DNA from: Phycisphaerae bacterium
GTDB taxonomy: Bacteria; Planctomycetota; Phycisphaerae; UBA1845
Reading direction: 5' to 3'
DNA: 51,964 bases
NCBI GenBank assembly: GCA_036505095.1
Contig: DASXUA010000637.1
Location: 1-51,964, forward strand
A program made the translations under genes and the position numbers. This document shows, piece by piece, positions 2,367 through 26,100 of this stretch. Under the pieces are notes generated by a model. That model searched no databases. It was not told the origin of the DNA and was given only the letters and a program-made list of their open reading frames with translations. Each line of letters starts with the position of its first letter. Position 1 is the first letter of the stretch.

Positions 2367-4612
2367 TTGAAGATCTCCTCGGCCTGGCGCCGGATGGCTT
2401 CCTCGGTCTCGGCATTCAATTCGCCCTGGAGCCGCAGAATCTCGCGCAGCATGTTGACGGTCTCCTGGAAGCCCTCCCATTTTACCATCTGGGTCAGCAC
2501 GGCTCTCATTTGTTGAATTATTTCGGCCTGCAACGGGTCCACACCCGCTGCCACGTCCGTGGCCGGCTCGCCGGCCAGGTTCCGCAGCAAGTCGGCGGCC
2601 GTGATCATGTCGCGGCGCGCCAGCCAGCCCAGCGGCTCGATCACACCCCGCCCCAAGCGCTCTTGGACGATCGAGGTGTCCAGCCGGTTCACCCGCATTT
2701 CCGTCAGAATCTGCTCGAACTGCTGGCGGATGATGTTGACCTGTCCGGCGATCTGCCGCTGGCGGCGCTCCTGGGCGCTGATGGCGCGGCCGAAGTCGTT
2801 CATCGACTGCGCGTCGCCCATGTGGCCGATCAGCGTCAGCAACTGCCCGCGCACCTGTTCCTGGGCCTCAATCAGGCGCTCGAAACTTTGGCGATATTCC
2901 TGCTCGCGCCGGCCCAGATCGGCCAGCAGTTCGTCGCGCGTCACGACGCGCATGGTCACACCCGATGATTGGCCGACATTAGGCCCGGAAACGTCGTCGG
3001 CGTCCACGGCGCGCGCGAACACGGTGATGCGATCGCCGGGGACAGCCGCTGCAGCCGACAGGGGCCATTCAAATCGCGCGTTGAAGACCTTCACGCGCGT
3101 TTCAAATCCGGGGACGGACAGCGGGACAGGCGCCGCGATGTCGCGCTCCGTCCCGGCAATCGAAGCGGCCCGGCTGGCGAATTGGTACACGAATTCGGCC
3201 GTGGCCAGGCCGTAAGCATCCGAGAACTCCAGGTCGACGGGCAGCACGGCTTCGGCCGTCACCATGTCGCTCACGCCGGTGAGCTTCAGACGTGCGCGCG
3301 GTGGCTCGTCCTTGATGATGCGCACCGAAAACCGCGCTGGATGCTTGTCTTCCAGACCGCTGTCGTCCAGCAGGTCAAACTGATAGCTCTGCGTCTGCGC
3401 CGGACGAAAGCTGACGGACCAATGCGTGGAAAATCCTGCAGCGTCGGGCCTTGTGCCCGGCGCCAGGCTGACGGCGCCGCCCACAAGGGGCGACGCCACA
3501 TCGGCTGGCTGTGCCGCGTCGATCACCTGATCGCCCGCGCGCAGCACAGCCTTCACGACGGGCTTGTTAGTCTCGATCCGGATCGCGACCTCGCTGCCGG
3601 GCAACGCTTCGGCGGCCCGTTGACCCTCGGGAAGATCGACGGGCGCCAGCCGCGTGTAGGTCGGCGGTGCGATCCGCACAATCGAGCGTTCCACGTTCGG
3701 GCGATCCACCAGTCGCACCGAGTACTCGCGCGTGCGGTCGTCGCCGCCGCGCAGCGAGAAAGTGAACTCCTCGGTCACGTGCGGAAAAGTGTAGCGGAAG
3801 CCGCGCTCACCGACGGCGATCATCGTCTCGCGGCCGGACTTGCGGCCGGCGTCAAAGAGAATTTCCACCTGTCGCGGAACCTCGCCATGCGCGGCCGCCC
3901 GGATTTCGAGGTCGTCACCGCGCGCCGCCGTGATGACGTTGCCATTGGTCTCCACCATCAAGCGCGTGCGCTGCGGCCAATTGACGTCGGCCAGCAGAAT
4001 GTTGCGCTGGAACCAGAGGCTTGCCAGGTCCCGAGTGGCGGGAATCAGCCAGGCCGCCAAAAACACGACTATGACCGCTACACCCATCCCGCCGCTGCGG
4101 GCTGCACGGCGATGATTTAGCAGCGTTGTCAGCGGCAGGTCGGCCGCACATTGCGCGCTCTCCTCGATCACCGCGGAAACCAGTTCAGGCGACTGGGAGG
4201 GCGAGGCTCCCGCCGAGCCTTCCGCGCTCTCGGTGCGGCGCTGCGGCGCGCGGCGCGCCAGGAAGAACTGCAGGCCGGAGACCACAAGCGACTGGAGTTG
4301 TGGATATCGCTGCTCGACCAGGCAGGCGGCCTCGAAGACGCCGTAGCCCCGCCGCAGCGGCGCTACGATTCGCCGCCACGCGATGACCGCGATGACCGCC
4401 AGGACGGCGATGAGCAGTGCCGCGCGCATGTCCGTGCGCAGCCGCATCGACCAGTCGATCAGGAATTGTACTACGACGGCCAGCAGAACGCTGATGGCCA
4501 GAATGGCCAGACCGTCAAGCAGCACATAGACCGACAAACGTCGCGCCAGCCCCCGCAGGCGGGCCAGAACGTTCCGCTCGAATTGTCGCTCGTGCTCGGA
4601 CATAACCGCCAA
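2363..4612 (-). CDS. large membrane protein, function unknown (N-terminal TM pair, long extracytoplasmic region)
   Basis: 749-aa ORF with hydrophobic helices near the N-terminus (VYVLLDGLAILAISVLLAVVV, AALLIAVLAVIAVIAW) and another near aa 180. It is translationally coupled (ATGA) to the downstream coiled-coil gene. No family recognised with certainty. Confidence 0.75.
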   Translation of the reverse strand: MAVMSEHERQFERNVLARLRGLARRLSVYVLLDGLAILAISVLLAVVVQFLIDWSMRLRTDMRAALLIAVLAVIAVIAWRRIVAPLRRGYGVFEAACLVEQRYPQLQSLVVSGLQFFLARRAPQRRTESAEGSAGASPSQSPELVSAVIEESAQCAADLPLTTLLNHRRAARSGGMGVAVIVVFLAAWLIPATRDLASLWFQRNILLADVNWPQRTRLMVETNGNVITAARGDDLEIRAAAHGEVPRQVEILFDAGRKSGRETMIAVGERGFRYTFPHVTEEFTFSLRGGDDRTREYSVRLVDRPNVERSIVRIAPPTYTRLAPVDLPEGQRAAEALPGSEVAIRIETNKPVVKAVLRAGDQVIDAAQPADVASPLVGGAVSLAPGTRPDAAGFSTHWSVSFRPAQTQSYQFDLLDDSGLEDKHPARFSVRIIKDEPPRARLKLTGVSDMVTAEAVLPVDLEFSDAYGLATAEFVYQFASRAASIAGTERDIAAPVPLSVPGFETRVKVFNARFEWPLSAAAAVPGDRITVFARAVDADDVSGPNVGQSSGVTMRVVTRDELLADLGRREQEYRQSFERLIEAQEQVRGQLLTLIGHMGDAQSMNDFGRAISAQERRQRQIAGQVNIIRQQFEQILTEMRVNRLDTSIVQERLGRGVIEPLGWLARRDMITAADLLRNLAGEPATDVAAGVDPLQAEIIQQMRAVLTQMVKWEGFQETVNMLREILRLQGELNAETEEAIRRQAEEIFK
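3438..3499. repeat. REP-like palindromic element, copy inside a CDS
   Basis: gcagcgtcgggccttgtgcccggcgcc...cgccgcccacaaggggcgacgccac. It is about 85 percent identical by eye to the copy at 46315..46375 and related to 43436..43483. Confidence 0.6.
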
Positions 4613-10660: not shown

Positions 10661-10734
10661 TGGCCGCGATGGGATTCGAACCCACATCTCCATGATCTTG
10701 AATCATGCGCCTCTGCCGATTGGGCTACGCGGCC
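10661..10734 (-). tRNA. tRNA with anticodon CAA (Leu codon UUG), 74 nt, short 5-nt variable loop
   Basis: RNA sense: GGCCGCG TA GCC C AATCGGCAG A GGC G CATGA TTCAAGA TCATG GAGAT GTGGG TTCGAAT CCCAT CGCGGCC A. Perfect 7-bp acceptor, canonical T loop, A73, no encoded CCA. Confidence 0.8.
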
Positions 10735-10737
10735 AAT

Positions 10738-10811
10738 TGGCTGGAGCGGGATTCGAACCCGCACCTGCGGAGGTTTAAGCTCCGTGCCTCTGCCAGTTGG
10801 GCTATCCAGCC
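10738..10811 (-). tRNA. tRNA with anticodon UAA (Leu codons UUA/UUG), 74 nt, short variable loop
   Basis: RNA sense: GGCTGGA TA GCC C AACTGGCAG A GGC A CGGAG CTTAAAC CTCCG CAGGT GCGGG TTCGAAT CCCGC TCCAGCC A. Only 3 nt from the previous tRNA. Confidence 0.8.
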
Positions 10812-10812
10812 T

Positions 10813-10899
10813 TGGGCGGTGGAGGAATCGAACCTCTCGTCGACCACCTCACTTTCTTGGCGACACCGGTTTTACAAACCGGCGTGAGGAGCGCCGCCC
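10813..10899 (-). other. aberrant tRNA-like element (good T arm and acceptor, GUA anticodon-like hairpin, no canonical D arm)
   Basis: RNA sense: GGGCGGC GCTCCTCACG CCGGT TTGTAAA ACCGG TGTCGCCAAGAAAGTGAGGTGGTCGACG AGAGG TTCGATT CCTCC ACCGCCC A. Only 10 nt lie between acceptor and anticodon stem. There is a 28-nt variable region. CCTCAC can pair with GTGAGG across the anticodon hairpin. The true 5' boundary is unresolved (see 10900..10969). Confidence 0.35.
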
Positions 10900-10969
10900 G
10901 ATTGCAAGGCGCGCAAGTTGGGCGTGCTTGGCGCCGGCTGCGCAATCGCCGAAGCACCGCCGCGCGGTC

Positions 10970-11043
10970 TGCGGCCGGAGGGATTCGAACCCTCACACAC
11001 CGGACTCTCAGCCCGGCGGCTTTGCCGTTTTGCCTACGGCCGC
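10970..11043 (-). tRNA. tRNA with anticodon GAG (Leu codons CUC/CUU), 74 nt, short variable loop
   Basis: RNA sense: GCGGCCG TA GGC A AAACGGCA A GCC G CCGGG CTGAGAG TCCGG TGTGT GAGGG TTCGAAT CCCTC CGGCCGC A. Confidence 0.8.
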
Positions 11044-11045
11044 AC

Positions 11046-11160
11046 TGGCCAGAGTGGGATTCGAAGGGGACCCCAACCGCGTTGCATCGCGGTTGGGGAC
11101 CCCAGCCCACACTAAATGCGTTCTGAGCGCATCGCCTCTGCCGAGTTGGGCTACCTGGCC
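11046..11160 (-). tRNA. tRNA with anticodon CAG (Leu codon CUG) interrupted by a 40-nt palindrome in the T arm (75 nt without it)
   Basis: RNA sense: GGCCAGG TA GCC C AACTCGGCAG A GGC G ATGCG CTCAGAA CGCAT TTAGT GTGGG [40-nt insert] TTCGAAT CCCAC TCTGGCC A. Removing 11066..11105 restores a perfect T arm. Confidence 0.6.
11066..11105. repeat. 40-nt near-perfect palindrome inserted between T-stem and T-loop of the CAG tRNA
   Basis: ggggaccccaaccgcg ttgcat cgcggttggggacccc ag. 16-nt arms with one mismatch. Confidence 0.7.
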
Positions 11161-11450
11161 ATCGCGCGCAACAAAAAACCCGACATGCCGCTGGGCCTGC
11201 CGGGTCCGTGCGCGATCTATCAACTCAATCTATGCGCAGTCCGGGCAGGCCTCCTGTAGCAGGATGTCGCTAAGGTAACGCAAGCTGCCCGATAACTGCT
11301 TCATGAGCTTCTCATCTATTGCAACATTATGCACGAAACTCGTGCGAAAGCAAATGCGGATCCGCCTGGTCCAAGACGTCGCTCGATCAATGCCACCGCA
11401 CGGGACCTGGCCTCAGAGCAACACCACGACGGCAGCGCTGCCGTGGTGCG

Positions 11451-13805
11451 ATGCGGCCTGCCGCGCCACGCTTGACGCGGGTGGACTTTCACGAGCAAAC
11501 TGACGGAGTGCGGCATCGCTCACGAAAACCGCGAAGGCTGGCCAAGCCGGCGCTGAGGTATCGGCAGATTCTGGCCTGGGCGGATGCACACCATCGCCGC
11601 ACGGGCCGATGGCCGGGGCAAATATCAGGTCCGGTGGTGGACGCGCCTTGGGAGACCTGGCGCGGCATCCACACCGCCACGGCTCGGGGATTGCGCGGGC
11701 TGCCAGCCGGATATGCCTTAGCCCGGCTTCTGGCGGAGCGCCGCGGCGCGCGAAACCTTCACAGTCGCCCGCGCTTCAACGAGCAAATCATCCTTGAGTG
11801 GGCGGACGAATACTTCAAGCGCACCGGCCGATGGCCGCAGCCTAAATCGGGGCCGGTCCGCGGCGCTCCGGGCGAAACGTGGATGAGAGTCGACGACGCG
11901 CTGCGTGGCGGTGGCCGCGGGCTGAAGGGCGGCTCCTCCCTCGCGCGGCTCCTGGGCCGGCACCGCGGACATCGCAACATCGCGGACCTGCCGCGGCTCA
12001 CTTTGTCCAGGATTCTACAGTGGGTCGACGCGCACCACCGGCGCACCGGCCGATGGCCGAATGCCCAGTTGGGCGCCGTCCTGGACGCGCCCGGCGAAAC
12101 TTGGGCCGCCATCGGACGCGACTTGACGGTGGGTTGCCGCGGTCTGCCTGGTGGTTCCACGTTGGCGCAGCTTCTGGCGGAGCACCGCGGTGTGCGCAAC
12201 CGGCTGCGACTGCCCCGCTTGAGCATTCGGCAAATCCTGGCCTGGGCTGATGAGCATCGCCGACGTACCGGCCGGTGGCCCACGCCGCGCTCCGGTCCGA
12301 TTCCACAGTCGACGGGGGAAACCTGGGCTTGCATCGAAGCGGCGCTATGGACGGCTCGCCGGGGTCTGGCGGACGAGTTCGTGCGGGATCAATCGCGGAA
12401 TGGCGGTTCGGAACCGCGCTCGCTGGCCCAACTCCTGGCGGCGTACCGCGGTGTGCGAAACCCGGCCGCCGTGCCCCCGTTGACCGAGCGTCAGATCCTC
12501 GCCTGGGCCGATGACCATCACCGCCGAACGAAGGCGTGGCCCAAGTCAAACTCCGGGCCGATCGCCGCGGCGCCGGGAGAGACCTGGACTGGCGTGGCCG
12601 TGGCTTTGCACGCCGGGCATCGCGGTCTTGAGCGCGGCTCGTCTCTCGCCCGGCTGCTGCTGCAGCACCGCGGGGTGCCGATTGTCAACCAGCCGCGGCC
12701 CCTGACGATACCGCGCATCCTCAGTTGGGCGCGGGCCTATCGCCGGCGCACGGGCGAATGGCCACAGATCATCAGCGGTGTGATCGCCGAATCGCCGTCG
12801 GAGACCTGGTCCAAAGTCAACGGCGCTCTGGAGAAGGGGCAGCGCGGACTGCCGGATGGCTCGTCGCTGGCGAAGTTACTTCACGAGCGACTTGGCGCGC
12901 GTCACAGAAAACATCCTCCGCCGCTGACCGTCGAGCAGATCCTGACCTGGGCTGACGCCCATCATGATCGGACCGGCGTTTGGCCCACCAAGAAGAGCGG
13001 CGCGATTGCCGCGGCGCCCGGCGAAACCTGGGCCCTGGTGAACGACGCTCTAAACAAGCGGCAGCGCGGCTTGCGCGATTCCGATGCCCCAACATCGTTG
13101 GCGCGGTTGCTGCTAGCTCGGCGCGGCGTGCGGAACCGCATGAACCTGCCAAGATTGACGGAGGCAAAGGTCCTCAAGTGGGCCGATCAACACTTTGCGC
13201 GTGCCGGACAATGGCCGCGGGCCTCTTCCGGGCCAGTTCTGGGAGCGTCGGGTGAGACGTGGCGGAACGTCAAGACGGCGTTGTATCAGGGCGCGCGCGG
13301 ATTGCCCGGGGGGACGAGCCTGGCGCGGTTGCTCAGCGCGAAGCGCGGCGTGCGTAATGTCCAGCGCCTGCCTCCATTAAGGATACCGCCAATCCTGACT
13401 TGGGCCCGCCGGCACCGCCGACGCACGGGCGAATGGCCCCGAGCCAAGTCGGGCTTGATCGTGGGCACATCCGGCGAGACTTGGGCGGGGGTGGACAGCG
13501 CGCTGTTCAAGGGGGTGCGCGGTCTGCCGCCAGGCTCATCTCTGGCGCGGTTGCTCCAGGAGCATTGCGGCGTGCGCAACGAAAAGAACCCGGGGACGTT
13601 GAAGGTTGCGCAGATCATGACATGGGCCCAGGCGCATCGGCAGCGCACTGGCCGGTGGCCACGGCACAACTCAGGCGAGATTCCCGGGACAGGCGGGGAG
13701 ACTTGGTGGAGTATCGATACGGCCCTCAAGAACGGCATCCGCGGCCTGAGGTCAGGACAATCCCTGGCGCGGCTGCTGCCCCCAAGTCGCGTTCCCATGG
13801 TTTGA
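11451..13805 (+). CDS. arginine-rich protein made of ten ~77-aa tandem repeats, function unknown
   Basis: ORF 11319..13805 (TTG at 11319; first ATG at 11451). Ten units match LPxL(T/S)xxQILxWADxHHRRTGxWPxxxSGxIxxAPGETWxxIdxALxxGxRGLPGGSSLARLLxxxRGVRN. The start is uncertain. Confidence 0.75.
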   Translation: MRPAAPRLTRVDFHEQTDGVRHRSRKPRRLAKPALRYRQILAWADAHHRRTGRWPGQISGPVVDAPWETWRGIHTATARGLRGLPAGYALARLLAERRGARNLHSRPRFNEQIILEWADEYFKRTGRWPQPKSGPVRGAPGETWMRVDDALRGGGRGLKGGSSLARLLGRHRGHRNIADLPRLTLSRILQWVDAHHRRTGRWPNAQLGAVLDAPGETWAAIGRDLTVGCRGLPGGSTLAQLLAEHRGVRNRLRLPRLSIRQILAWADEHRRRTGRWPTPRSGPIPQSTGETWACIEAALWTARRGLADEFVRDQSRNGGSEPRSLAQLLAAYRGVRNPAAVPPLTERQILAWADDHHRRTKAWPKSNSGPIAAAPGETWTGVAVALHAGHRGLERGSSLARLLLQHRGVPIVNQPRPLTIPRILSWARAYRRRTGEWPQIISGVIAESPSETWSKVNGALEKGQRGLPDGSSLAKLLHERLGARHRKHPPPLTVEQILTWADAHHDRTGVWPTKKSGAIAAAPGETWALVNDALNKRQRGLRDSDAPTSLARLLLARRGVRNRMNLPRLTEAKVLKWADQHFARAGQWPRASSGPVLGASGETWRNVKTALYQGARGLPGGTSLARLLSAKRGVRNVQRLPPLRIPPILTWARRHRRRTGEWPRAKSGLIVGTSGETWAGVDSALFKGVRGLPPGSSLARLLQEHCGVRNEKNPGTLKVAQIMTWAQAHRQRTGRWPRHNSGEIPGTGGETWWSIDTALKNGIRGLRSGQSLARLLPPSRVPMV
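11541..13795 (+). repeat. in-frame tandem coding repeats (10 x ~231 nt, diverged)
   Basis: The RTG(R/E/V)WP motif recurs ten times at roughly 77-aa spacing in the translated ORF. Confidence 0.75.
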
Positions 13806-14223: not shown

Positions 14224-14420
14224 ATCGCGCTGCCGGATGTTGCCCTTGACACATCTCCCGCGAAGCGAGATCCGCCGCAACGCGGCGGGCGGCGCCTCAC
14301 GGCCGCAATGTGTCAAGGGTTGCCCTGCACGCGGTGCGGCAGGTAGACGCAGGGCGTGATGTTGCCGTTCGGCTCGATCGGCACGTACCGGCGCCCGGCG
14401 CCGCCGAGGATGCTTGGGTG
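14224..14420 (-). pseudogene. fragment of a radical SAM/SPASM paralog (matches 17999..18115), interrupted by a 72-bp insert
   Basis: 14319..14418 aligns to 18017..18115 (first 36 nt identical, roughly 85 percent overall, one 3-nt indel). 14224..14246 aligns to 18002..18024 (22/23). It encodes ..[30 protein letters not shown] | IRQRDA.., versus [37 protein letters not shown] in the intact gene. Confidence 0.65.
14247..14318. mobile_element. 72-bp MITE-like insertion with 8-bp target duplication
   Basis: Flanked by direct repeats gttgccct (14239-14246 and 14319-14326). That sequence occurs once at the homologous site of the intact paralog (18017-18024). Ends are tgacacat...atgtgtca(agg). Internal hairpin ccgccgc aac gcggcgg. 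Confidence 0.5.
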
Positions 14421-15659: not shown

Positions 15660-16384
15660 CTACGGTTCAGCTCGCGTCCGCCGACGAGGCTCCTCAGCTT
15701 CCGGTCCGTGGTCACTCGCGCGCCCGCCACCTCCGATGCGCAGGGCCTTTACCCGCCCGTCGCGCTCGGCAAAGCTGCGCGATATCTGCTTCCCCGAGTC
15801 TCTTCCGAACCAATCAAACGTCGCGACAAGCAAATAATCAACAACGCTGCGAAGGTCATGGCTTCTTCCGCTGCTAAAGACGTGGGAGGACCATACCGCC
15901 GTCTCCGGATTGGGCCCCTGTGTACTGGTCCACGATGCACGCTCATACAGCGTCGCGCCTAGATAACGCGTGTAGTACGTGTAGCTGTAGGGTGCGTACG
16001 AGGTCGTTCCCGGAAGGTTAGTCGTTGCCGTGGCCCAGTCGCCGCGACTCGTGTACACGTTGGTCGTCGCGGTGCCGCCTGGGTGGAACACGGGGCGCGC
16101 ACCGACCGCCGTGTGTCCGTCATCTATAGCGAAGAAGGCGGACAGTACATAATCGCAATCGAGAGCGGACGCGACAGAATAGCCCTTTTCCGCGAGGATA
16201 CTCTCGATCTTGCGCCCGACCTCCGCCTCCAATAACGGCTCGCCGGGGTCCGCCCTCGCCACTACGCCTATGCGCGCGGAGGAGCGCGCAGCCGGGAAGC
16301 TCTGCGTTCTCGAAAGTTAGTGGTGATGCTGACGTGATAGCGGGTGCAGCCCGCCATCAGCGCGGAAGCGGTGACGGTCAGCAT
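15660..16384 (-). pseudogene. DUF4136-like lipoprotein gene, apparently frameshifted
   Basis: Lipoprotein signal MLTVTASALMAGC (ATG at 16384) lies in one frame and stops at 16268. The body (..PLLEAEVGRKIESILAEKGYSV...VWSSHVFSSG..) lies in the 15660..16262 frame, which is open from about 16318. Confidence 0.4.
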
Positions 16385-16410
16385 TGCACGTAAATAGTCG
16401 TGCGTCACGT

Positions 16411-16702
16411 TCACCCTGGCTCGCGCCGGCTGCGCTCTTCGATCCACTTCGCCGCCAGCTTCTCTGGCGAGATGCCGGCGCGGGCGCTCAAGGCGTCGAC
16501 CTTGCGCTTCGTGCGTGCTGACAGCTTGATATGAAGCATCGCTCGCGCGCGCCAGAAAGCGCTTCATCGGCTCGGGATAGTCACGTGGACGGACGATCTC
16601 GGCCTCGCCGCGATCGAGGTTCTCAAAGGCCGACGTTCGCTCGATGTCGCGAATGGCAGCCAATTCGGCCTTCGTTGCTCGTGCTGATCGAGCTTGCTTC
16701 AT
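16411..16702 (-). pseudogene. small antitoxin-like (DUF4415/RHH-type) gene, apparently frameshifted
   Basis: MKQARSARATKAELAAIRDIERTSAFENLDRGEAEIVRPRDYPEPMKRFLARA, then a frame switch to MLHIKLSARTKRKVDALSARAGISPEKLAAKWIEERS..*. Paralog of 16737..17036. Confidence 0.45.
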
Positions 16703-16736
16703 CGCTCATCGCGTGCTCAGCAGCCCACGTCCCGTT

Positions 16737-17036
16737 TCATCCCTTGCTCAATCCAGCCTCGTGCCAGACGCTCCATCGGAACGCCTGTGCGTTCGCTGCG
16801 CGATTCGAGCGCGCGATGACCCGTCCGGGCAGCCTGAGGTGCAGAATGTTACAACGCCGAGCAAGAAAACGCTTGATCGGCTCCGGGTACTCGTCCGGCG
16901 TGAGAATCCTGGCCTCGCCGGTTTCGAGCATGTCGAAGGCCGACCTGCGCTTCATGTCGCGGACATAGGCCGCCTCGGCACGGCTCATACCCAACGCATT
17001 CTTCCCTCTCGTCCCTGATTTCAACGTCCGGCCCAT
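16737..17036 (-). CDS. small antitoxin-like protein (DUF4415/BrnA-like)
   Basis: ORF 16737..17294 trimmed to MGRTLKS... It contains AEAAYVRDMKRRSAFDMLETGEARILTPDEYPEPIKRFLARR..LHLRLPGRVI. No cognate toxin gene is visible. Confidence 0.5.
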   Translation of the reverse strand: MGRTLKSGTRGKNALGMSRAEAAYVRDMKRRSAFDMLETGEARILTPDEYPEPIKRFLARRCNILHLRLPGRVIARSNRAANAQAFRWSVWHEAGLSKG

Positions 17037-17173
17037 CTTGGGTAGCGGCGCATCTCGTCCGCCGTCATTCGATCCATAGGGCACGTATGAGGGCTTCCGG
17101 GCAGATTGGTGGTTACGGTCCCTGACCTGCCAAATTCGCTCCTCCCGGTGGCGCCGCAGTCGACCACTCGTCG

Positions 17174-17629
17174 TCAGTATAGCTCCGCCATCCACTGGCC
17201 GCCGTGACGTGGGTTGCCCACCAGGCGCTGGTTGACCGGATCGATCCACCAGTCCATTACTTCCAGCGGTACCTGCCCAAGGAGTGGCGGGCAATCGTCC
17301 GGAAGTTCCATCACCTCGCTGATGCAGTCGCGGCCTTCTACCGTAACTCGGACCGGCGAGTAGATCCCCATTGGCGTCAGGCCGTTGGCTGTATTTGTCT
17401 CCTTCGTTCGCAGGAAGCGGAGGCCGAGTTGCGCCACAAATCGCTTCGGAAGGCAGAAATACGTCGCTCCGGAGTCCACCAACGCGCTGATTTCGAGCCG
17501 CCGCACCCGCTCAGGGCCGATCTCGCCCGCCTCACGGCGCACGACATCGTCGTAATTCTCGGCCGTCAGTCGAACGTCAACGCGTCCCACATCGACTCCA
17601 GGCTTCGGCTCAACTGCAGTCATCGTCAT
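17174..17629 (-). CDS. retropepsin-like (clan AA) aspartyl protease
   Basis: 151 aa with ALVDSGATYFCLP (the D-S/T-G-A active-site motif), at the size typical of single-domain bacterial retropepsin-like proteins. Confidence 0.7.
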   Translation of the reverse strand: MTMTAVEPKPGVDVGRVDVRLTAENYDDVVRREAGEIGPERVRRLEISALVDSGATYFCLPKRFVAQLGLRFLRTKETNTANGLTPMGIYSPVRVTVEGRDCISEVMELPDDCPPLLGQVPLEVMDWWIDPVNQRLVGNPRHGGQWMAELY

Positions 17630-17698
17630 CGCGGCACCTCGCGGGTATTATAGCCCGCACGCCGCTCCAGATTCAAAGGCGGGTGACTGAGCGCCACC

Positions 17699-19735
17699 CT
17701 ATCCGGCGCGGGCGGCGGCGGCGGCCGCGTAGGTTTCGTTGATTTCGTGCTGGCGCGCGGCGGGCGTCTTAACGGCGGATTCGGGATCGGTGGCGATGCC
17801 GCGGGCGACCAGGTCGTCCCAGTGCTTCTCGTTGAAGATGCAGCCGGGGTCGCCGGCGTTCAGGTCGCCGAAATACGCATCGGCGCGGGCGCGGCAGCCG
17901 CCGCAATAGTGCTTGAACTCGCAGACCTCGCAGTGATGCGTGCGGCGGTCGCGGTCGCAGAGCAGTTCCCAGAACTCGTTATGGCGGAAGATGTCGATGA
18001 AATCGCGCTGGCGGATGTTGCCCTGCACGCGGTGCGGCAGGTAGACGCAGGGGGTGATGTTGCCGTTGGGCTCGATCGCGACGTAATCGCGGCCGGCGCC
18101 GCAGCCGCCCAAGTATTTGGCAATGACGCGGGCCTTCTCGCCGCCGCCGCTGCCGGCGTGCGAGCAGGCTTGCTTGCCTTCGGTCGGAGCGTGCGCGACG
18201 CACGTGCGGCCGAACTGCGGCGCCGTGCTGATCACGCCGATCTTGCCGGACTGCATGGCGTTGTTCAGCTTGCGCAGCAGCAACTCGCGCTGCCTGGGGT
18301 TCAGGTCGCCGTCGACCATCTGCAACCCGCGGCCGACCGGGATGAAGTTGAAGTGCGCGAACACGCCGGCGCCGATGTCGACGCAGAAGTCGAGCATGTC
18401 GTCGACTTCGTCGAAGTTGCCCTGGTGCACGCACATCGCCACGCCCAATCGCAACCCTTCCTGCTTGACGACGTTGCGCATGCCGTCGACCGTGCGGTGC
18501 CACATGCCGGGCTGACCCCGGAAGTCGTCGTGGCGATGCGGGTAGACTGAATCGAGGGAGATCTCGACGTAGCGCACGCCTGAATCGGCCAGCTTCTTCG
18601 CCAGCTTGGGCGTCATGGTGCCGCCATGCGTGGCGATGGTCGTGTGGATGCCGTGCGAGTGGCAGCGCTCCAGCACCGGCATCAAATCGGAGGAAATCGT
18701 CGGCTCGCCGCCGGCAAAAGCGATCATCGGCACGTACTGCTCGGCGATCTGATCGACCAGCCGCAGTTTCTCCTCGAGGGTCAGCTCGTCGGGCAGCTTC
18801 TTGTGCTCGGCGTCCTGGTAGCAGTGCTTGCACTTGAGATTGCAGAGGTTCGTAAAGTTCCAGACGATGAACAGGGGGGCCGTGAAGCGCTGCGGCAGCG
18901 TCAGGCCGAACTCGGCCACGCTGCGGGCCGCGATCACCATGCCGCGGATGCTGCTGGCGTGCTCGCCGATGCGCTTGCGGAAGGTCTCGGCCGTCACGCC
19001 GCCCTTCATCTTGTCGATGAACAAGTGGAACGGCCAGTACTTGAGGCGGTGCGTCAGCGGCGCGTCGGGATTCGCATACGACGAGATGATTTCTTCGATC
19101 ATCGTCTTGCCGCTGGCGCGCTTCGTCGAGATATAGCCGAAGATCTTGCGCATGTAGCGCGTGTCGAGCAGATCCTCCAGCGGGTGGTGGTAATCCATGT
19201 CGACGTATTTCTTGCGGACCTGCTTGCGGGCCTGTGGCTCCAGTTTGTCGGGTGCAACCACGCCACGCTTCGATCGAGCGTCGTCGGCATAGATGTGCGA
19301 GTTGGCGTATCCATCTTCGCGGCGGCCCGAAGTCTTGTTGGGATTAGCGGAGATGGCGCCCTCGTGATGATACTGCTTACCAATCTTCGTGGCGGTGGAA
19401 AGCTCGGGCGCCTGAGTACGGCTGTCGTAGCGCGTGGCCTCGCCGCGATAAGCCTCGCGCTTGCCTTTGCGCCGGCCGCCGTCCTTGGTGGTCATCATCA
19501 TGCCGACGTACTGGCTTGAGCCGTACGGCAGGTTGGTGGGATCGGCGAAGACGTCGCCATACTCCTGGATCGAGCCGTGCCCGCCGGACGAGCAGCATCC
19601 GCCGGACGAGGCCTGGTCTGAAATGACTTCGAGCGCGAGGCTCACTCCATGCGACCGGCCCTTGGAATCGACAGCCGGCGCGATGCCGCCCCCGGAAGTC
19701 TCGACGCTCTTGTCCAATCGCAAATCGGCCATCAT
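17699..19735 (-). CDS. radical SAM / SPASM-domain enzyme with ~290-aa N-terminal extension
   Basis: CNLKCKHCY (CxxxCxxC), GGEPT, and a C-terminal Cys-rich SPASM-like region (CGAGRDYVAIEPNGNITPC...HCEVCEFKHYCGGCRA). The N-terminal part is unassigned and contains SSGGCCSSGGHG. Confidence 0.9.
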   Translation of the reverse strand: MMADLRLDKSVETSGGGIAPAVDSKGRSHGVSLALEVISDQASSGGCCSSGGHGSIQEYGDVFADPTNLPYGSSQYVGMMMTTKDGGRRKGKREAYRGEATRYDSRTQAPELSTATKIGKQYHHEGAISANPNKTSGRREDGYANSHIYADDARSKRGVVAPDKLEPQARKQVRKKYVDMDYHHPLEDLLDTRYMRKIFGYISTKRASGKTMIEEIISSYANPDAPLTHRLKYWPFHLFIDKMKGGVTAETFRKRIGEHASSIRGMVIAARSVAEFGLTLPQRFTAPLFIVWNFTNLCNLKCKHCYQDAEHKKLPDELTLEEKLRLVDQIAEQYVPMIAFAGGEPTISSDLMPVLERCHSHGIHTTIATHGGTMTPKLAKKLADSGVRYVEISLDSVYPHRHDDFRGQPGMWHRTVDGMRNVVKQEGLRLGVAMCVHQGNFDEVDDMLDFCVDIGAGVFAHFNFIPVGRGLQMVDGDLNPRQRELLLRKLNNAMQSGKIGVISTAPQFGRTCVAHAPTEGKQACSHAGSGGGEKARVIAKYLGGCGAGRDYVAIEPNGNITPCVYLPHRVQGNIRQRDFIDIFRHNEFWELLCDRDRRTHHCEVCEFKHYCGGCRARADAYFGDLNAGDPGCIFNEKHWDDLVARGIATDPESAVKTPAARQHEINETYAAAAAARAG

Positions 19736-19859
19736 CGCACCTCGTTTATGTCCCCGATAACACGGACTGACCGAGTGTCACTCGGTTTTTGGCGGCGTTT
19801 CGCGCCAGCGACGCCGCCCAACCGCCGATTCGCCGCACGCGTTCAGCTCTCGGAGTCGC

Positions 19860-20216
19860 TCACGGCTGAACCGAGGCGCCCGAGAGGGCGCGCGCACTCT
19901 GCTCGACCGCCCATTCGAATCCCTTTACAATCTCGTAGATGGCAGCCGTCTCATATAAGGCATCGCACAACACGTCATCCGGATACCGTTCCGAACTCTG
20001 AGACAAGAGAGCCGTAACCTGTCCAGCGATGACGTGCTGCAGCTCATTGACGCCTTGGAATTTCTGAACACGACGATCTGCGGACATTGCGGGGCTCGCA
20101 AGTGGATAGGCATCGCGGCCACACACCGTCAGGTTGTTTGCGAGCCGCGCCAGAAACTCTGCCTGATCTTGCACGGGGCTGCGGGCATAAAGGGATTTGA
20201 ATTCGTCAGAGGTCAT
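19860..20216 (-). CDS. hypothetical protein (downstream member of a 2-gene cassette)
   Basis: 118 aa. The start overlaps the upstream stop (ATGA at 20213-20216). No family recognised. Confidence 0.5.
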   Translation of the reverse strand: MTSDEFKSLYARSPVQDQAEFLARLANNLTVCGRDAYPLASPAMSADRRVQKFQGVNELQHVIAGQVTALLSQSSERYPDDVLCDALYETAAIYEIVKGFEWAVEQSARALSGASVQP

Positions 20217-20470
20217 ACCGCATCCTCATCAGTATAAGACTGGCGAAGGAGCGAGTCCACGTCGACGCCACGCTGCTTCAGGATGAATACGCGAGTATTG
20301 CCCTGCATGACCGTACCGTCCGGCTTGACGCGTAACGGCTCGAACTCGCTGCCCTCTCGCAATGACTCAATGATCTCCTCCGTGCTCTTTGGCTCCCAGA
20401 AATCGAAGCTCGATTGCCGCATTGAACTGCGCGGGTGAATGACGCGGAGCGGAGGAAGTTGATCAGCCAC
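20213..20470 (-). CDS. hypothetical protein (upstream member of a 2-gene cassette)
   Basis: 85 aa. Contains LRVKPDGTVMQGNTRVFILKQRG. No confident family. Confidence 0.5.
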   Translation of the reverse strand: MADQLPPLRVIHPRSSMRQSSFDFWEPKSTEEIIESLREGSEFEPLRVKPDGTVMQGNTRVFILKQRGVDVDSLLRQSYTDEDAV

Positions 20471-20539
20471 GTTGCAGTATCCAGGCGTTCGTTCTCCTTA
20501 CTTACTCCTCGGTTCCTCAGAGCCTCTGAGTCCCGCTCG

Positions 20540-22672
20540 TCAATGACATCCGCACCCGCTGCCGCAGCCGCCGTTACCGTTCGCGCCTTTGGGCTTCATC
20601 GCGCCTGCGGCCAAAATCGGCAACATCAGCTTGTTCTCGACTCGCCCGCCGACCCACTGTTCGTTTTCATCATCCTGCGTGCCAAAGCGATTGGCCCATG
20701 GCATGACCGCGTTCGGGTGACTCGACGGTCGCAGCGCGATCATCGGGTTCTCGGCCTGCCACTCGGGATTGGCCATCGCATACATCCGCTCGATGTAATG
20801 CCGGTAGCTCGGGCCGCTGTTGATCGTGCAGAAGGGGTAGATCCCATCGGGCGTCGAATACTGAATCACGCAGCGGCGGACGCGCTCCACGTCGTAGTTG
20901 TAGCGGTCCATGAAGTGCATACCGGCCGCCATGAGAGTTTTGTACGATTTCTTCTCGCCCGCGCCGCGGCCCTGCTCCTTGTTGGTCAGGCCCTGAAGCG
21001 CGCGAATGAAGGTGAACGGCGAAATGCGCTTGTCATATTCCTTCCAGCGATAGCTCTTCAGGAATGTGGCGAGCATGGTCAGCTTATCGAAGCCGTTCGC
21101 CAGATCGCGCTTGGCCTTGATCTTCTTGTGCAGCTCATTGAAACCGCCGAACAGCTTGGCCACATCGAACAGCTTGGGAATGGGAATGGCCTCGTGCTCG
21201 GGCGTCACGAAGAAATAGGTGCCGAAGGCGCAGTCGCTGTGGCAGCTCGGCCGGATTTTGGGCTTGCCATCTAGAAGCTCCATGACGCGCGACATGGGCG
21301 TCAGGAACGAGAGCGGGAAAAAGTCCCGGTGCGGATCGGCCCCCGAGCAGTTGGCGATATCGTGCGCCAAGTCGCCGAGCGTGTAGCGTTTCTTGTCCAG
21401 ATCGCGCTTATTGATGCGGCCCGTGAATACCACCGGCTGATAGCTAATGGCGCTAATTGCATCCGAGTGCTCGACAGCGAACTTGAATATCTTGGCGACC
21501 TGGTCGTCGTTGAAGCCTTTGATGATAGTCGGCACGAGGCAGATCTTCAGGCCCGTCTTCTTGCAGTTCTCGATGGCTTTGAGTTTCTTTTCGAGCAGCG
21601 GCTCGGCGCGGACCTTCTTGTAGATGCGATCGTCGAGGCCATCGAACTGCAAGTAGAGGGTGTGCAGCCCGGCCTCGGCCGAGCGCTCGGCGAACTCCAG
21701 GTTCGCGTGCGTGATGCCGTTGGTGGCAATCTGCACATGCGTGAAGCCCATCTCATTTGTCTTACGGACAATCCGGTGGAACTCCGGATGGATCGTCGGT
21801 TCACCGCCGGTGAACTGCACGGCCGTCGAGGGATACGGATGCTGCTCGCGCAACGCTTGCAGCATCTCGACCACCATCTCAAACGACGGCTCGGACACAT
21901 AGCCGGCCGTATTGGCACAGGCGAAGCACACCGGGCAAGTCAGGTTGCAGCGGTTGGTGAGATCGACCTGCGCCAAACACGACGTCGAGATGTGCTGATT
22001 GCAAAGACCGCAGTCGGACGGGCAGGAATGCGCCTTGTCGATCTGCGGGTCGTACACGCCGCGCTCATCCTCGAAGATGCTGCGCGTGCTCTTGATGTAC
22101 AACCGCGCATCGGTCGAAATGCGGTCCCGGAAGTAGCCGTGCTCCGGACACGTTTTCTCGATGTAAACCGTGTTCTCTTTTACGTAGTAGCGGCCCAGGA
22201 TGTTGCACGAGCACTCCGGACAGAGTGTCTCAACTGTCTTGGGCAGGTTTTTTACGACCGGCCGGATGATGAAGCCCTTGTAGGTGCGCTTAGGTTGATG
22301 CTCCGTGTAGCCCGGCTTGTTCTTGACGAACAGCACGTCCTCATGCCGCTCGCGATACGCACCACAAACGGGGCAGGCGAATTCCAGGTAGATTGCGTCT
22401 TCGTCGCGGTCGTAGACATAGCGGGACGGAACGGTGTTGTCGCACTTGATGCAATGCGACTGGCATTCCCACGGAAGCCCCTTGATCCCCTTCTGCACCG
22501 GAGCGTATTTGCGGAGCGACAGCTTATAGGCTTCTAACTCGGTCCTGGCCGTGTCGCTGGTCACGGCCCGGCGGCGGATACGATGGATGGGCCGGACCAG
22601 ATTTCCGGAATGCGAGCCGGCCGGATCGCTGGGATCGATCCGGGTCTCGATCGGTGCGGAAGGTTGGATCAC
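20540..22672 (-). CDS. radical SAM enzyme of the Tes / GDGT-MAS (MJ0619, COG1964) type
   Basis: GTG start. CPECSCNILGRYYVKENTVYIEKTCPEHGYF matches the rubredoxin-like N-terminal module of this family. It is preceded by a second similar module, CIKCDN...ACPVCG. Then VDLTNRCNLTCPVCFA (radical SAM) and FTGGEPT. The C-terminus ends GNGGCGSGCGCH. Confidence 0.85.
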   Translation of the reverse strand: MIQPSAPIETRIDPSDPAGSHSGNLVRPIHRIRRRAVTSDTARTELEAYKLSLRKYAPVQKGIKGLPWECQSHCIKCDNTVPSRYVYDRDEDAIYLEFACPVCGAYRERHEDVLFVKNKPGYTEHQPKRTYKGFIIRPVVKNLPKTVETLCPECSCNILGRYYVKENTVYIEKTCPEHGYFRDRISTDARLYIKSTRSIFEDERGVYDPQIDKAHSCPSDCGLCNQHISTSCLAQVDLTNRCNLTCPVCFACANTAGYVSEPSFEMVVEMLQALREQHPYPSTAVQFTGGEPTIHPEFHRIVRKTNEMGFTHVQIATNGITHANLEFAERSAEAGLHTLYLQFDGLDDRIYKKVRAEPLLEKKLKAIENCKKTGLKICLVPTIIKGFNDDQVAKIFKFAVEHSDAISAISYQPVVFTGRINKRDLDKKRYTLGDLAHDIANCSGADPHRDFFPLSFLTPMSRVMELLDGKPKIRPSCHSDCAFGTYFFVTPEHEAIPIPKLFDVAKLFGGFNELHKKIKAKRDLANGFDKLTMLATFLKSYRWKEYDKRISPFTFIRALQGLTNKEQGRGAGEKKSYKTLMAAGMHFMDRYNYDVERVRRCVIQYSTPDGIYPFCTINSGPSYRHYIERMYAMANPEWQAENPMIALRPSSHPNAVMPWANRFGTQDDENEQWVGGRVENKLMLPILAAGAMKPKGANGNGGCGSGCGCH

Positions 22673-23150: not shown

Positions 23151-26100
23151 TTACACCGTCACCAGCATGGCGCCATCTTCAATGGTAGACTCGGACCGCC
23201 AGCGCTCGGATAGCTCGGTGAGCTTGGCCTCGATCTCCGCCCGCTTGGCGTGCTCCCGTACCATCCGCTCGCGGTAGCGCTTCAAGAAGTAGGCAATGGT
23301 CTCAATGCGGATGCGGATCGAGCCGGTTGGCTTGTTCTCGTCGATGTCTTTGAAGCAGAAATAGGGCGTGCCGCTGCGCTCGATGATCTCCTCGATGTTC
23401 GAGTAGATCGGTGCATCGTGCCCGCACTTGAAGCTGCTCAACTCCAGCGCCACCAGGTTCGGATGCCGGGCGGTATACTTGGCGGCCCACATCTTGCGGC
23501 TGGTGTTCTCGGAGTAGCTGTTCTTCCAGACGTCCTCGACCGAGAGCGGCGACTTGAATTCTCCGGCGGCCACTTCGGCCCCGAACAGCCGCTCCAGGAT
23601 ATCGTCGTCGATGGGCAATGTATCCTGCCAGAAGATCGGATAGCCGAGCTTCTGCAGCTCTTCGCAAATCTCGTGGTTAACGCCCGGGTCGTTGTGGTAA
23701 GGCCGGGCGAGCACGACCACGCCCATCCGCTGCTCGCGCTCGAGCTGATCGAGAATCTCGCGCGCCTGCCGCCGCAGCTTGCTCTCGAACGCCTGCAGCG
23801 CCTTGAGTCCCTGTTTTGTGGCCCGATATGATTCTTCGGGCGAGAGGCCTAACTCGTCTTTCCAGTCGTCGTACATCTGCTTGGCGCACAGTTCGGCTTT
23901 GTCCATGTTCAGGAAGGTCTTCTTGAAGACGATGCCCTTCTGCTTGAACAGGTCGCCCTCTTTGACAAAGGCAGCGTGCGTCGCTTCGGTCGTCGAGACG
24001 ACCGTCGGGCAGGCGCGGCTGTCCTGCACGTTGTGCAGGAAGGTCGGGAACGAATCGACCATGGGGAAGAAGATGTGCGTCAGCGGCTTTTTCTCATGCT
24101 GCACGTAGAGCAGGTCGTGCACATGCGGGATGCCCAGTTTGCTCGGGAAGCACGGGTCGATGCTGCCGCGCTTGGCGCCGCGCTTGTACAGCTCCGTGCT
24201 GGTGTACTCGCTGAACACCAGATTGCGGTGCGGGAGCCCCAGGCTCTGGAAGAAGCCCAGGAAGAACGGCGACTGCCCGTACATATTGAGCACGCGCGGG
24301 AAGCCGATCCGCAATTCCTTACGCCGCTCCATGAGCGCCCGACGCGCGTCAGAACCCCCCCCGTCGCAGATCCGCCGTGGCGGGCTAGTGGGGGGTGACG
24401 TGTGCGCGCTGCCGGTATCAGCGCGCGAAGCACACCCGCCCTTGGCAGGGCGGGTTTTGAACAGCCGCGCCCATCGGGAAAGCTGCGGCAGCGGATCAGA
24501 TACGTCCTCGACCTGAACCTCCTTGAAGGCCTCGTGGGCCGCCACCGCCAGCAGGTTCGGATTGGCTTTCTTGACCGCGTCGAGACCGCTCTTGATGTCG
24601 CGCATGTCGTTGATGTCTTCGACTGTGCCCTTCTCGCAGGTGGCGATGATCAGCCGTTGCTCGCCTTCCTGCAGCGGCACCTTGGACTTGCTCTTGGTTG
24701 AAGCCTTCTTCATCAACTCCTTGGCCTCGGCCGCTGGATCGACAGCTTGGGGGGCGGGCATCCCACCTGCCGGCGCGCTAACCACGCCCAGGCTGACCAA
24801 AACGCCATCGGCCTTGTCCGGCTGCGCGTCGCCGGTCTTAACGTCGATGAACGTCCGCAGGCACTTGTTCTTGCAGAAATAGCAGCGCGTCGACTCCTCG
24901 CGCGTGGTGCGGTATTGGATCTTTCCCACCCGATCCAACCCGATGAATGTTGTCTTCAGGCCGCACTCGTTCCACAACCGCTGCGCCTCGATCGCACAGC
25001 CAATCGCGCCGCTCTCGCCGCAGTGCTTGTGCACGATCACTTGCGGAGTAACGCCCGTGCCGACGAAACGCGATTCGATGAAATCGACCTGCGACTTGAC
25101 CGCGGCCAGGTTATGCTGCGTGCCGCCTTGCAGGACGAACTTCGTGCCGAGCTTGGCCAGGTTCGGAATCTGCGAGACGTACAGCCAGATGTTCTTGGGC
25201 AGCACGGCCGCCAGCCCGGCCATGATCTCGTTCGGCTGCCAACCTTGGCGCTGGAAATCGACGATGTCCGACTGCATGAAGACCGCGCAGCCGTAGCCGA
25301 ACTCCGGCATGGCCTGCGCGCTGAACGCGATGTCGGCATAGTCGTGCACGTCGAACCCGAAGCCGGTGGCCGTCGATTGCAGGAAATAGCCGTTGCCCGC
25401 GCTGCACTGCGTATTGAGCTTGAAATCCTTGACGCTGCCGTTCCGCAGGATGATCAGCTTGATGTCCTGCCCGCCGACATCGACGATCACGTCCGTGCCG
25501 GGGTAGAAGTGCAGCCCGGCCTCGGTGTGCGCCACCGTCTCGACCAGCCCCACGTCCGCCTTCAGCACGTCCTTCAGAATGTCCTTGGCGTAGCCCGTTG
25601 TGCCCACGCCGAGAACCTTCAGCGTACAGCCCTGCTCGGTGATTTGCTTCTCCAGGGCGCCGCAGATGTCCATCGTGTCTTCGATGGGGTTGCCCTTGGA
25701 GAGCTGATACGATTTGGCGATGACGTTTTTGTCCTTGTCGACCAGCACACCTTTGCTGGAGGTCGAGCCGCCGTCCAGCCCGAGGAACGCCTCGACGAGC
25801 GTGCCGGGCGCGAACTTTGCCGGCGCCCACGGCTCTTTCTTGTAGCGGTCCTTGAAGTGACTCAGCTCATCGGGGTCCTTGACTAAACCCTTCGCTCCGG
25901 CCGCCGCTTTGTCGGCCGCCCGCCCGTGCTCGATGTACCACTTCAGGCGATCCATTCCGTGGTACACGCCCAGATTCGGATCATCGTCAATCTCACCCTT
26001 GGCGAATTCGACCACACCGATAGCCGCGAAGTACTGCGCGTTCTCCGGAGTGATGACGTAATCCTCCGGAGACTTGCTGGCATCCGGAATTTCGACGCCG

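Follow-up and report, generated by a model that had tools for sequence, protein, structure and literature searches.

A Planctomycetota-like tRNA array with four type I tRNALeu genes and a rewired tRNATyr-like gene

Gene content of the array

The DNA analysed here, which we call the window, is a stretch of 51,964 nucleotides (nt) from a Phycisphaerae bacterium (GenBank assembly GCA_036505095.1, contig DASXUA010000637.1, positions 1 to 51,964). Between positions 10661 and 11160, its minus strand carries what appears to be a tRNA operon on the chromosome of a Planctomycetota-like bacterium, comprising four type I tRNALeu genes, i.e. genes for leucine tRNAs without the long variable arm, and a rewired tRNATyr-like gene among them. 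The original prediction, made from the sequence alone, had described an array of tRNAs with leucine anticodons that lack a long variable arm. Both ARAGORN and the Rfam tRNA model recover this array at the predicted positions, and since the E-values are far beyond chance, the observation can be regarded as confirmed.

The genes for tRNA-Leu(CAA) (10661..10734), tRNA-Leu(UAA) (10738..10811) and tRNA-Leu(GAG) (10970..11043) are each 74 nt long, were called by ARAGORN, and score 60.8, 60.2 and 62.2 bits with the Rfam tRNA model, respectively (E about 1e-10 to 1e-13). The fourth gene, tRNA-Leu(CAG) at 11046..11160, is interrupted in this assembly. It was found by the Rfam model with relaxed thresholds at 34.1 bits, above the gathering score of 29, in an alignment with a T loop of 46 nt versus 6 in the model. 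Its anticodon was read from this alignment in the window and from an ARAGORN call on the intact, 75-nt allele in a second contig (L002, see below). The genes are separated by 3 nt (CAA-UAA) and 2 nt (GAG-CAG), which is the tight spacing that had been predicted wherever genes adjoin. The terminal CCA is not encoded.

All four leucine genes have a variable loop of 5 nt, measured in the Rfam alignment from the anticodon stem to the T stem, where a canonical class II tRNALeu has a variable arm of more than 10 nt. They also share A73, U8-A14, A15-U48, G18G19 followed by N-A-G, and a 3-bp D stem in which positions 13 and 22 are unpaired (C.A in three genes, A.A in the GAG gene, which has the D arm variant GGCA/AGCC). 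The predicted features (A73, the short D stem with an unpaired 13/22 position, the 5-nt variable loop and a length of 74-75 nt) are thus all present in the four genes, and the covariance model kept the leucine anticodons and assigned no long variable arm. The anticodon loops are UUCAAGA (CAA), CUUAAAC (UAA), CUGAGAG (GAG) and CUCAGAA (CAG). Position 37 had been singled out as unusual, with G after A36 in the CAA species and A after G36 in the GAG and CAG species; the loops bear this out, and the UAA species has A37.

The four leucine genes had been recognized correctly, but the 158 nt between the UAA and GAG genes hold a fifth gene on the same strand that the original prediction had missed, a non-cloverleaf tRNATyr(GUA)-like gene (10899..10813), which was delimited by its homologues and their covariation and is described in a separate section. 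The 70-nt spacer that separates it from the GAG gene (10900..10969, minus strand) folds no better than shuffled sequences (z = 0.32) and has no Rfam match.

Directly upstream of the first tRNA, at 11172..11206 on the minus strand, the sequence shows a hairpin, after which come GGGUUUUUU and a GC-rich box (GUUGCGCGCG). A motif of like build, a hairpin with GGGTTTTTT and GTGCGCGCG, precedes the first tRNA of a related array in a Planctomycetota metagenome-assembled genome (MAG) (locus L004, about 3468-3510). The GC-rich box reads GTTGCGCGCG in the window and CGTGCGCGCG in L004. The hairpin and T-run look like an intrinsic terminator set before the tRNA operon. No sigma-70-type promoter was found by a consensus scan, for which the consensus may not suit this phylum.

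The interruption of the CAG gene is a 40-nt insertion (CUGGGGUCCCCAACCGCGAUGCAACGCGGUUGGGGUCCCC; 11066..11105, minus strand) between G53 and U54, as located by alignment with L002. The inserted sequence is almost perfectly palindromic, and its fold is a stable hairpin. L002 is a Logan contig (run SRR11743100). Its aligned 720 nt, which span the array, differ from the window in nothing but this clean 40-nt indel (100% identity otherwise), and the contig encodes nine window proteins on either side of the array identically; its CAG gene is an intact 75-nt tRNA gene that ARAGORN calls. The same insertion is present in a JGI contig (L408, sample 3300036864), but apart from this contig no further copies of the palindrome were found in the window or in the 442 fetched loci. 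The CAG copy is therefore disrupted in the window, as predicted, but by a single allele-specific insertion, which we read as a recent, still-polymorphic population variant that is not fixed at the locus. An archaeal-type bulge-helix-bulge intron was considered and rejected: the flanks are 2 nt and 7 nt long, as opposed to two 3-nt bulges around a 4-bp helix.

A broad family of type I tRNALeu

The starting premise of the original prediction, that bacterial tRNALeu is class II, was too absolute. A type I tRNALeu(CAA) is established in Streptomyces coelicolor, where it is leucylated by the single leucyl-tRNA synthetase (LeuRS) at about half the efficiency of type II tRNALeu, and in our scans such tRNAs are very common in Actinomycetota (Fan et al. 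2019, NAR, PMC6614811, for S. coelicolor). Attempts to knock out the S. coelicolor gene failed, and deleting the stem of the long variable arm from a type II tRNALeu of this species left charging unharmed (PMC6614811). The identity elements of E. coli tRNALeu listed in the same study (A73, A14, A15-U48, G18G19-U55C56 and U54-A58) are all present in the leucine genes of the window.

To define the family, we used the signature GGCARAGSC-N26-GGTTCGAATCC, which represents the 3' half of a leucine-type D arm at class I distance from the T arm and leaves both the anticodon and the discriminator base unspecified. GTDB (one genome per species) and IMG/VR were searched; anticodon, discriminator and sequence counts given for these scans are those among the matches listed. 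The genome scan gave at least 127 matches in at least 120 loci, with leucine anticodons in 127/127 (UAA 62, CAA 30, UAG 18, CAG 10, GAG 5, AAG 2) and A73 likewise in 127/127. In IMG/VR, 124 of 127 matches had a leucine anticodon and 126 of 127 had A73, and the matches lay mostly inside phage tRNA arrays. As neither feature was part of the search pattern, we consider this coupling of an anticodon-free signature to leucine anticodons and A73 the strongest evidence that these sequences specify real leucine tRNAs. The 115 distinct sequences of the genome family show multiple compensatory pair types in all four stems, and A15-U48 and C13.A22 are each conserved in 107 of them.

Most of the genome matches listed come from Actinomycetota, mainly as single genes and including Streptomyces; others are found in Planctomycetota, Acidobacteriota, Chloroflexota, Rokubacteria, Bacteroidota and other MAGs, in some cases inside large tRNA arrays. 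Lone type I genes occur in four Planctomycetota contigs (L013, L031, L055 and L064). The Streptomyces tRNALeu(CAA) genes (L090, L113) were retrieved by the signature derived from the window and are 74-78% identical to the CAA gene of the window. Its UAA gene has its closest listed match, with 82% identity, in the Planctomycetota MAG L064, and its GAG gene is 82% identical to the GAG gene of a Planctomycetales MAG (L019), whose GAG and CAA genes share the unusual D arm. These results argue for the first of the three alternatives that had been offered for the array, a variable-arm-less tRNALeu family, which is borne out by the family scan, the coupling of A73 to the anticodons, and the covariation.

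Comparison with known tRNAs gives the same picture. The S. coelicolor type I tRNALeu(CAA) is cytoplasmic and resembles the window genes in its 5-nt variable loop, A73, U8-A14 and the same D-arm and spacing signature. In Streptomyces, however, only the CAA species is type I, encoded by a lone gene, whereas the window has four type I isoacceptors in one operon; its lineage is Planctomycetota-like, and its CAA species has G37. With canonical class II tRNALeu (E. coli, and the UAA gene of L019), the window genes have in common the 3-bp D stem with the 13:22 mismatch, the order A14 A15 ... G18 G19 N20 A20a G21, A15-U48, A73 and the anticodons, but the canonical tRNAs have a variable stem-loop of 12-20 nt in place of the 5-nt loop. 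Animal mitochondrial type I tRNALeu also combines a short variable loop with A73; it has degenerate D and T loops and a dedicated LeuRS, however, while the window genes keep the canonical D- and T-loop elements. The family has lost nothing except the long variable arm. What bacterial LeuRS is known to read is kept: A73, U8-A14, A15-U48 as the Levitt pair, a 3-bp D stem mismatched at 13:22, and the leucine-type placement of G18G19 and nucleotide 20a.

Two readings of the genes can be set aside on this basis. That they are non-functional relics, i.e. decaying tRNA pseudogenes, might be suspected from the 40-nt T-loop insertion in the CAG gene of the window and from position-37 bases that are unusual compared to E. 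coli. Three of the genes and the intact CAG allele, however, have flawless stems and conserved tertiary and invariant positions, with scores of 60-62 bits; their homologues covary, and relatives show the same states at position 37 (A37 following G36 is frequent throughout the family), so that these states do not look like signs of decay. The perfect stems and the family covariation contradict this alternative of the original prediction, and we consider it very improbable. Even less credible are mis-sense or recoding tRNAs that would carry another amino acid on a leucine anticodon, like allo-tRNAs or the Streptomyces tRNAProA. A class I shape with a leucine anticodon does superficially resemble the mismatches between anticodon and identity seen in other bacteria. 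Against this, the leucine-type D arm, A15-U48 and A73 are coupled to leucine anticodons in the genome and viral matches listed (127/127 and 124/127), the acceptor stems of the window genes have no G3-U70 or other foreign identity mark, and the family member that was tested is charged with leucine (PMC6614811).

At loci that hold both forms, the anticodons of type I and type II tRNALeu do not overlap in 4/4 genome loci and in 37/46 viral loci. Because such overlap is rare, the two forms would seem to serve interchangeably as isoacceptors and not as duplicates. In the sampled viral loci (L161-L405), type I tRNALeu genes outnumber type II genes by 299 to 93, in a sample that is biased because the loci were chosen for a type I tRNALeu or a Tyr-like gene.

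The leucine genes of the window therefore belong to a known kind of tRNA, and their novelty is modest: one operon encodes four isoacceptors, the setting is Planctomycetota, and the family proves to be broad. The textbook generalisation on tRNALeu is corrected by these findings, not overturned. Arm-less tRNALeu is no oddity of Streptomyces; it forms a broad, coherent family in several bacterial phyla and in phages and provides most isoacceptors in some Planctomycetota. This breadth bears on the co-evolution of LeuRS and its tRNAs and on the assignment of isotypes by tRNA finders.

A tRNATyr-like RNA without a D hairpin

We rank the fifth gene (10813..10899, minus strand) as the most novel item of the region. 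It was missed in the window by ARAGORN as well as by the Rfam tRNA model, and its only Rfam match is tRNA-Sec with 28.9 bits, below the gathering score of 47. From 5' to 3', its layout is GGGCGGCG CU CCUCAC G CCGGU-UUGUAAA-ACCGG U GUCG CCAAGAAA GUGAGG UGGU CGAC GA GAGG-UUCGAUU-CCUC CACCGCCC A. The acceptor branch is of the 8/4 type, with eight acceptor pairs (one of them C.A) and four T-stem pairs. Like a tRNATyr, the RNA has A73 and a GUA anticodon in a 7-nt loop (UUGUAAA), and its variable region, about 29 nt long, includes a stem that covaries, but a standard D stem-loop with G18G19 is absent. The acceptor and anticodon stems are just 9 nt apart. Within these 9 nt, after a 2-nt linker, the sequence CCUCAC (X5) pairs with GUGAGG (X3) in the loop of the variable arm, and X3 is followed by UGG. 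The anticodon arm lies inside this X5/X3 helix, which is pseudoknotted with the variable stem.

Judged by this geometry, X5 would run on into the 5' strand of the anticodon stem, as canonical positions 22-25 do, while X3 and the UGG behind it would stand in for positions 10-13 and for G18G19 in the D loop. On these grounds the RNA could plausibly adopt an L shape, in which the acceptor branch has 12 bp and the anticodon branch about 11 pairs. The closest known structures are the allo-tRNAs and other 8/4 tRNAs, which resemble the Tyr-like RNA in the 8-bp acceptor and 4-bp T stem, the long variable arm, their occurrence in bacteria and phages, and a weak match to the tRNA-Sec model. In allo-tRNAs, however, the D arm is a normal hairpin that consists of a long stem and a tetraloop, and the identity is serine (Mukai et al. 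2017, PMC5389517). No D hairpin exists in the RNA described here, whose D-side strand instead forms a pseudoknot by pairing to the loop of the variable arm; it also has GUA and A73.

Homologues support the structure and place the RNA in a large family that is borne mainly by phages. The related array in L004 contains one at 3824-3909, in which the acceptor, anticodon, variable and T stems all show compensatory changes, and another was found in L282 (9582-9669, minus strand). In three viral scans for the Tyr-like RNA, whose counts are again those among the matches listed, 97 of 105 distinct sequences (loci L283-L405) fit the architecture. All 97 have A73, and 80 of them encode CCA. Eight of eight acceptor pairs are formed in 93 of the 105 distinct viral matches, Planctomycetota copies included. 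In an alignment of 19 sequences, the X5/X3 helix is 100% paired, with changes on both sides in three of its six pairs, and the whole structure beats 500 of 500 shuffles and all slid controls. When the anticodon was left free, GUA was found in 69 of 76 architecture-fitting matches, and UCU or CCU in seven. Viral sequences with these arginine anticodons, seven in all (e.g. L417 423-486), in some cases have G or U as the discriminator base.

Standard tools are almost blind to this RNA: ARAGORN calls one of the 97 sequences listed, and the Rfam tRNA model found none of seven copies (that of the window and six homologues, the latter in register inside tRNA arrays). Among the 46 listed viral loci that have at least 15 tRNAs and a Tyr-like gene, only eight contain another tRNATyr, and the Tyr-like RNA therefore seems to fill the tRNATyr slot of phage tRNA arrays. 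Other searches gave no relatives. A metagenome scan with GGTTTGTAA-N32-42-GGTTCGATTCC returned 37 unrelated matches and no Tyr-like homologue, and a BLAST search of the viral sequences against about 50,000 GenBank phages returned no full-length relative; two annotated phage tRNA-Tyr genes that matched via the anticodon arm turned out to be canonical. The architecture is not described in the literature searched, including PMC5389517 and PMC7609411; as this coverage is incomplete, the term "undescribed" is provisional. If the family is functional, it would represent a natural non-cloverleaf topology in which the loop of the variable arm provides the 3' strand of the "D stem". The family could then explain why tRNATyr is missing from many phage arrays, and it could provide a new scaffold for tRNA engineering.

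Chromosomal setting and probable role of the operon

Two related arrays were compared with that of the window. The array of L004 (contig JBCCHQ010000007.1) consists of type I genes for CAG, UAA and GAG followed by the same odd Tyr-like gene. That of L019 (contig CAZPIO010000174.1) comprises type I CAG and CAA genes, a canonical class II tRNATyr, an 83-nt type II UAA gene and a type I GAG gene; it mixes both types with no duplicate anticodon. According to Pfam and NCBIfam matches, the window array is flanked by kinase, radical SAM, transporter and protease genes. The neighbours are a subtilase, a glutamate-synthase domain and an ECF sigma factor in L004, and a sulfatase and a gamma-glutamyltranspeptidase (GGT) in L019. 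No phage families, integrases or transposases flank the arrays of the window, L004 or L019, and the ten open reading frames (ORFs) flanking the window array gave no PHROGs match; the array is thus not embedded in phage structural genes or accompanied by an integrase. A tblastn search of nine window proteins against all genome loci revealed no flanking gene in common with L004 or L019. For an 840-amino-acid (aa) neighbour protein, only two homologues were found. One relative with 69% identity (L160) retains the synteny on the left-hand side.

We estimate the probability that the four leucine genes of the window are genuine, functional type I tRNALeu genes at about 80%. In the mechanism that we propose, RNase P and 3' trimming would mature the transcript, because the spacers are only 1-3 nt long, and CCA, which the genes do not encode, would be added post-transcriptionally. 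The LeuRS of the organism, whose gene lies outside the window, would charge the four tRNAs with leucine, and the charged tRNAs would act as ordinary elongators for CUG (CAG), CUC/CUU (GAG), UUA/UUG (UAA) and UUG (CAA). Expression and leucylation of these genes are thus deduced from their sequences and from the tested relative. We also lean slightly towards the view that they are the principal genes for their codons. At least one further leucine gene, with a UAG anticodon, must exist elsewhere in the genome, because CUA codons are in use (2.5% of the leucine codons in 16 window ORFs) and the array has no UAG tRNA. The earlier argument that the broken CAG copy implies canonical leucine tRNAs elsewhere is weakened by the polymorphism of the insertion; what stands of it is the need for this additional gene.

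Several observations weigh against functional, principal genes. Other prokaryotic LeuRS that were tested did not charge type I tRNALeu (PMC6614811), which means that charging of such tRNAs needs an adapted LeuRS. G37 after A36, as in the CAA gene of the window, is rare in the family (3 of the 30 CAA genes listed), although L019 shares it. The tRNA array has no fixed site, being absent at the syntenic site of L160, the nearest relative found. Finally, the CAG gene would serve 53.5% of the leucine codons in the 16 window ORFs, yet it is interrupted in two assemblies, which suggests that the interrupted gene is dispensable and that a back-up exists.

The last two points also favour a rival explanation, in which the array is an accessory, redundant set: a horizontally acquired and ultimately phage-derived cassette that backs up canonical class II tRNALeu and tRNATyr, for example against tRNA-targeting nucleases. 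Both unusual gene types, the type I tRNALeu and the rewired tRNATyr-like gene, are typical of tRNA arrays in phages; part of the population has a disrupted CAG copy, apparently without the lineage being lost; the L160 site lacks the array; and the window and L004 share the array and the upstream hairpin and T-run motif but not the flanking genes. The arrays of phages and Actinomycetota are likewise tightly packed, and many hold a type I tRNALeu together with the rewired Tyr-like gene. That of the window, however, contains only leucine and tyrosine species and lies among ordinary chromosomal genes, with no phage or integrase genes nearby. Its tRNAs are G+C-rich like the host, whereas many phage copies are visibly A+T-richer when judged by eye. 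Each anticodon is present once, and where both types occur together, as in the duplicate-free L019 array, they are complementary. Lone type I tRNALeu genes are, moreover, scattered like housekeeping genes in the four Planctomycetota contigs mentioned above. The ordinary context, the host-like G+C content, the single gene per anticodon and the lone genes in other Planctomycetota all speak for a housekeeping role. The accessory or decoy function that had been offered as an alternative thus finds no direct support, and we regard it as unlikely.

The housekeeping reading can be extended to the claim that the operon is the only source of tRNAs for CUG, CUY, UUR and tyrosine codons in its lineage, which would then have given up class II leucine tRNAs and use a pseudoknotted 8/4 tRNA without a D hairpin for tyrosine. 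We consider this extended claim doubtful. If it were true, the pair of unusual tRNAs shared with phages would point to an exchange of translational parts between phages and hosts.

Some further observations concern the surroundings of the array. A JGI contig (L001, 5322-5753 region) matches the window perfectly between positions 21735 and 16415 but diverges beyond the latter, which points to a structural variant. A radical SAM gene contains an 86-nt stretch (about 18017-18102) of which a second copy, 91% identical, lies at 14319-14404. On the plus strand at 11637-13805, a 722-aa protein without a Pfam match is encoded; it has many internal repeats, which were seen as repeated tblastn matches of an ORF on the opposite strand. 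The segments 16268-22672 and 23151-27071 contain two radical SAM enzymes, one with a SPASM domain and one with an HMPTM-type zinc ribbon. They are accompanied by small ORFs and a retropepsin-like ORF and adjoin a 1306-aa BadF/BcrA-type activase, and the region may represent a peptide-modification cluster.

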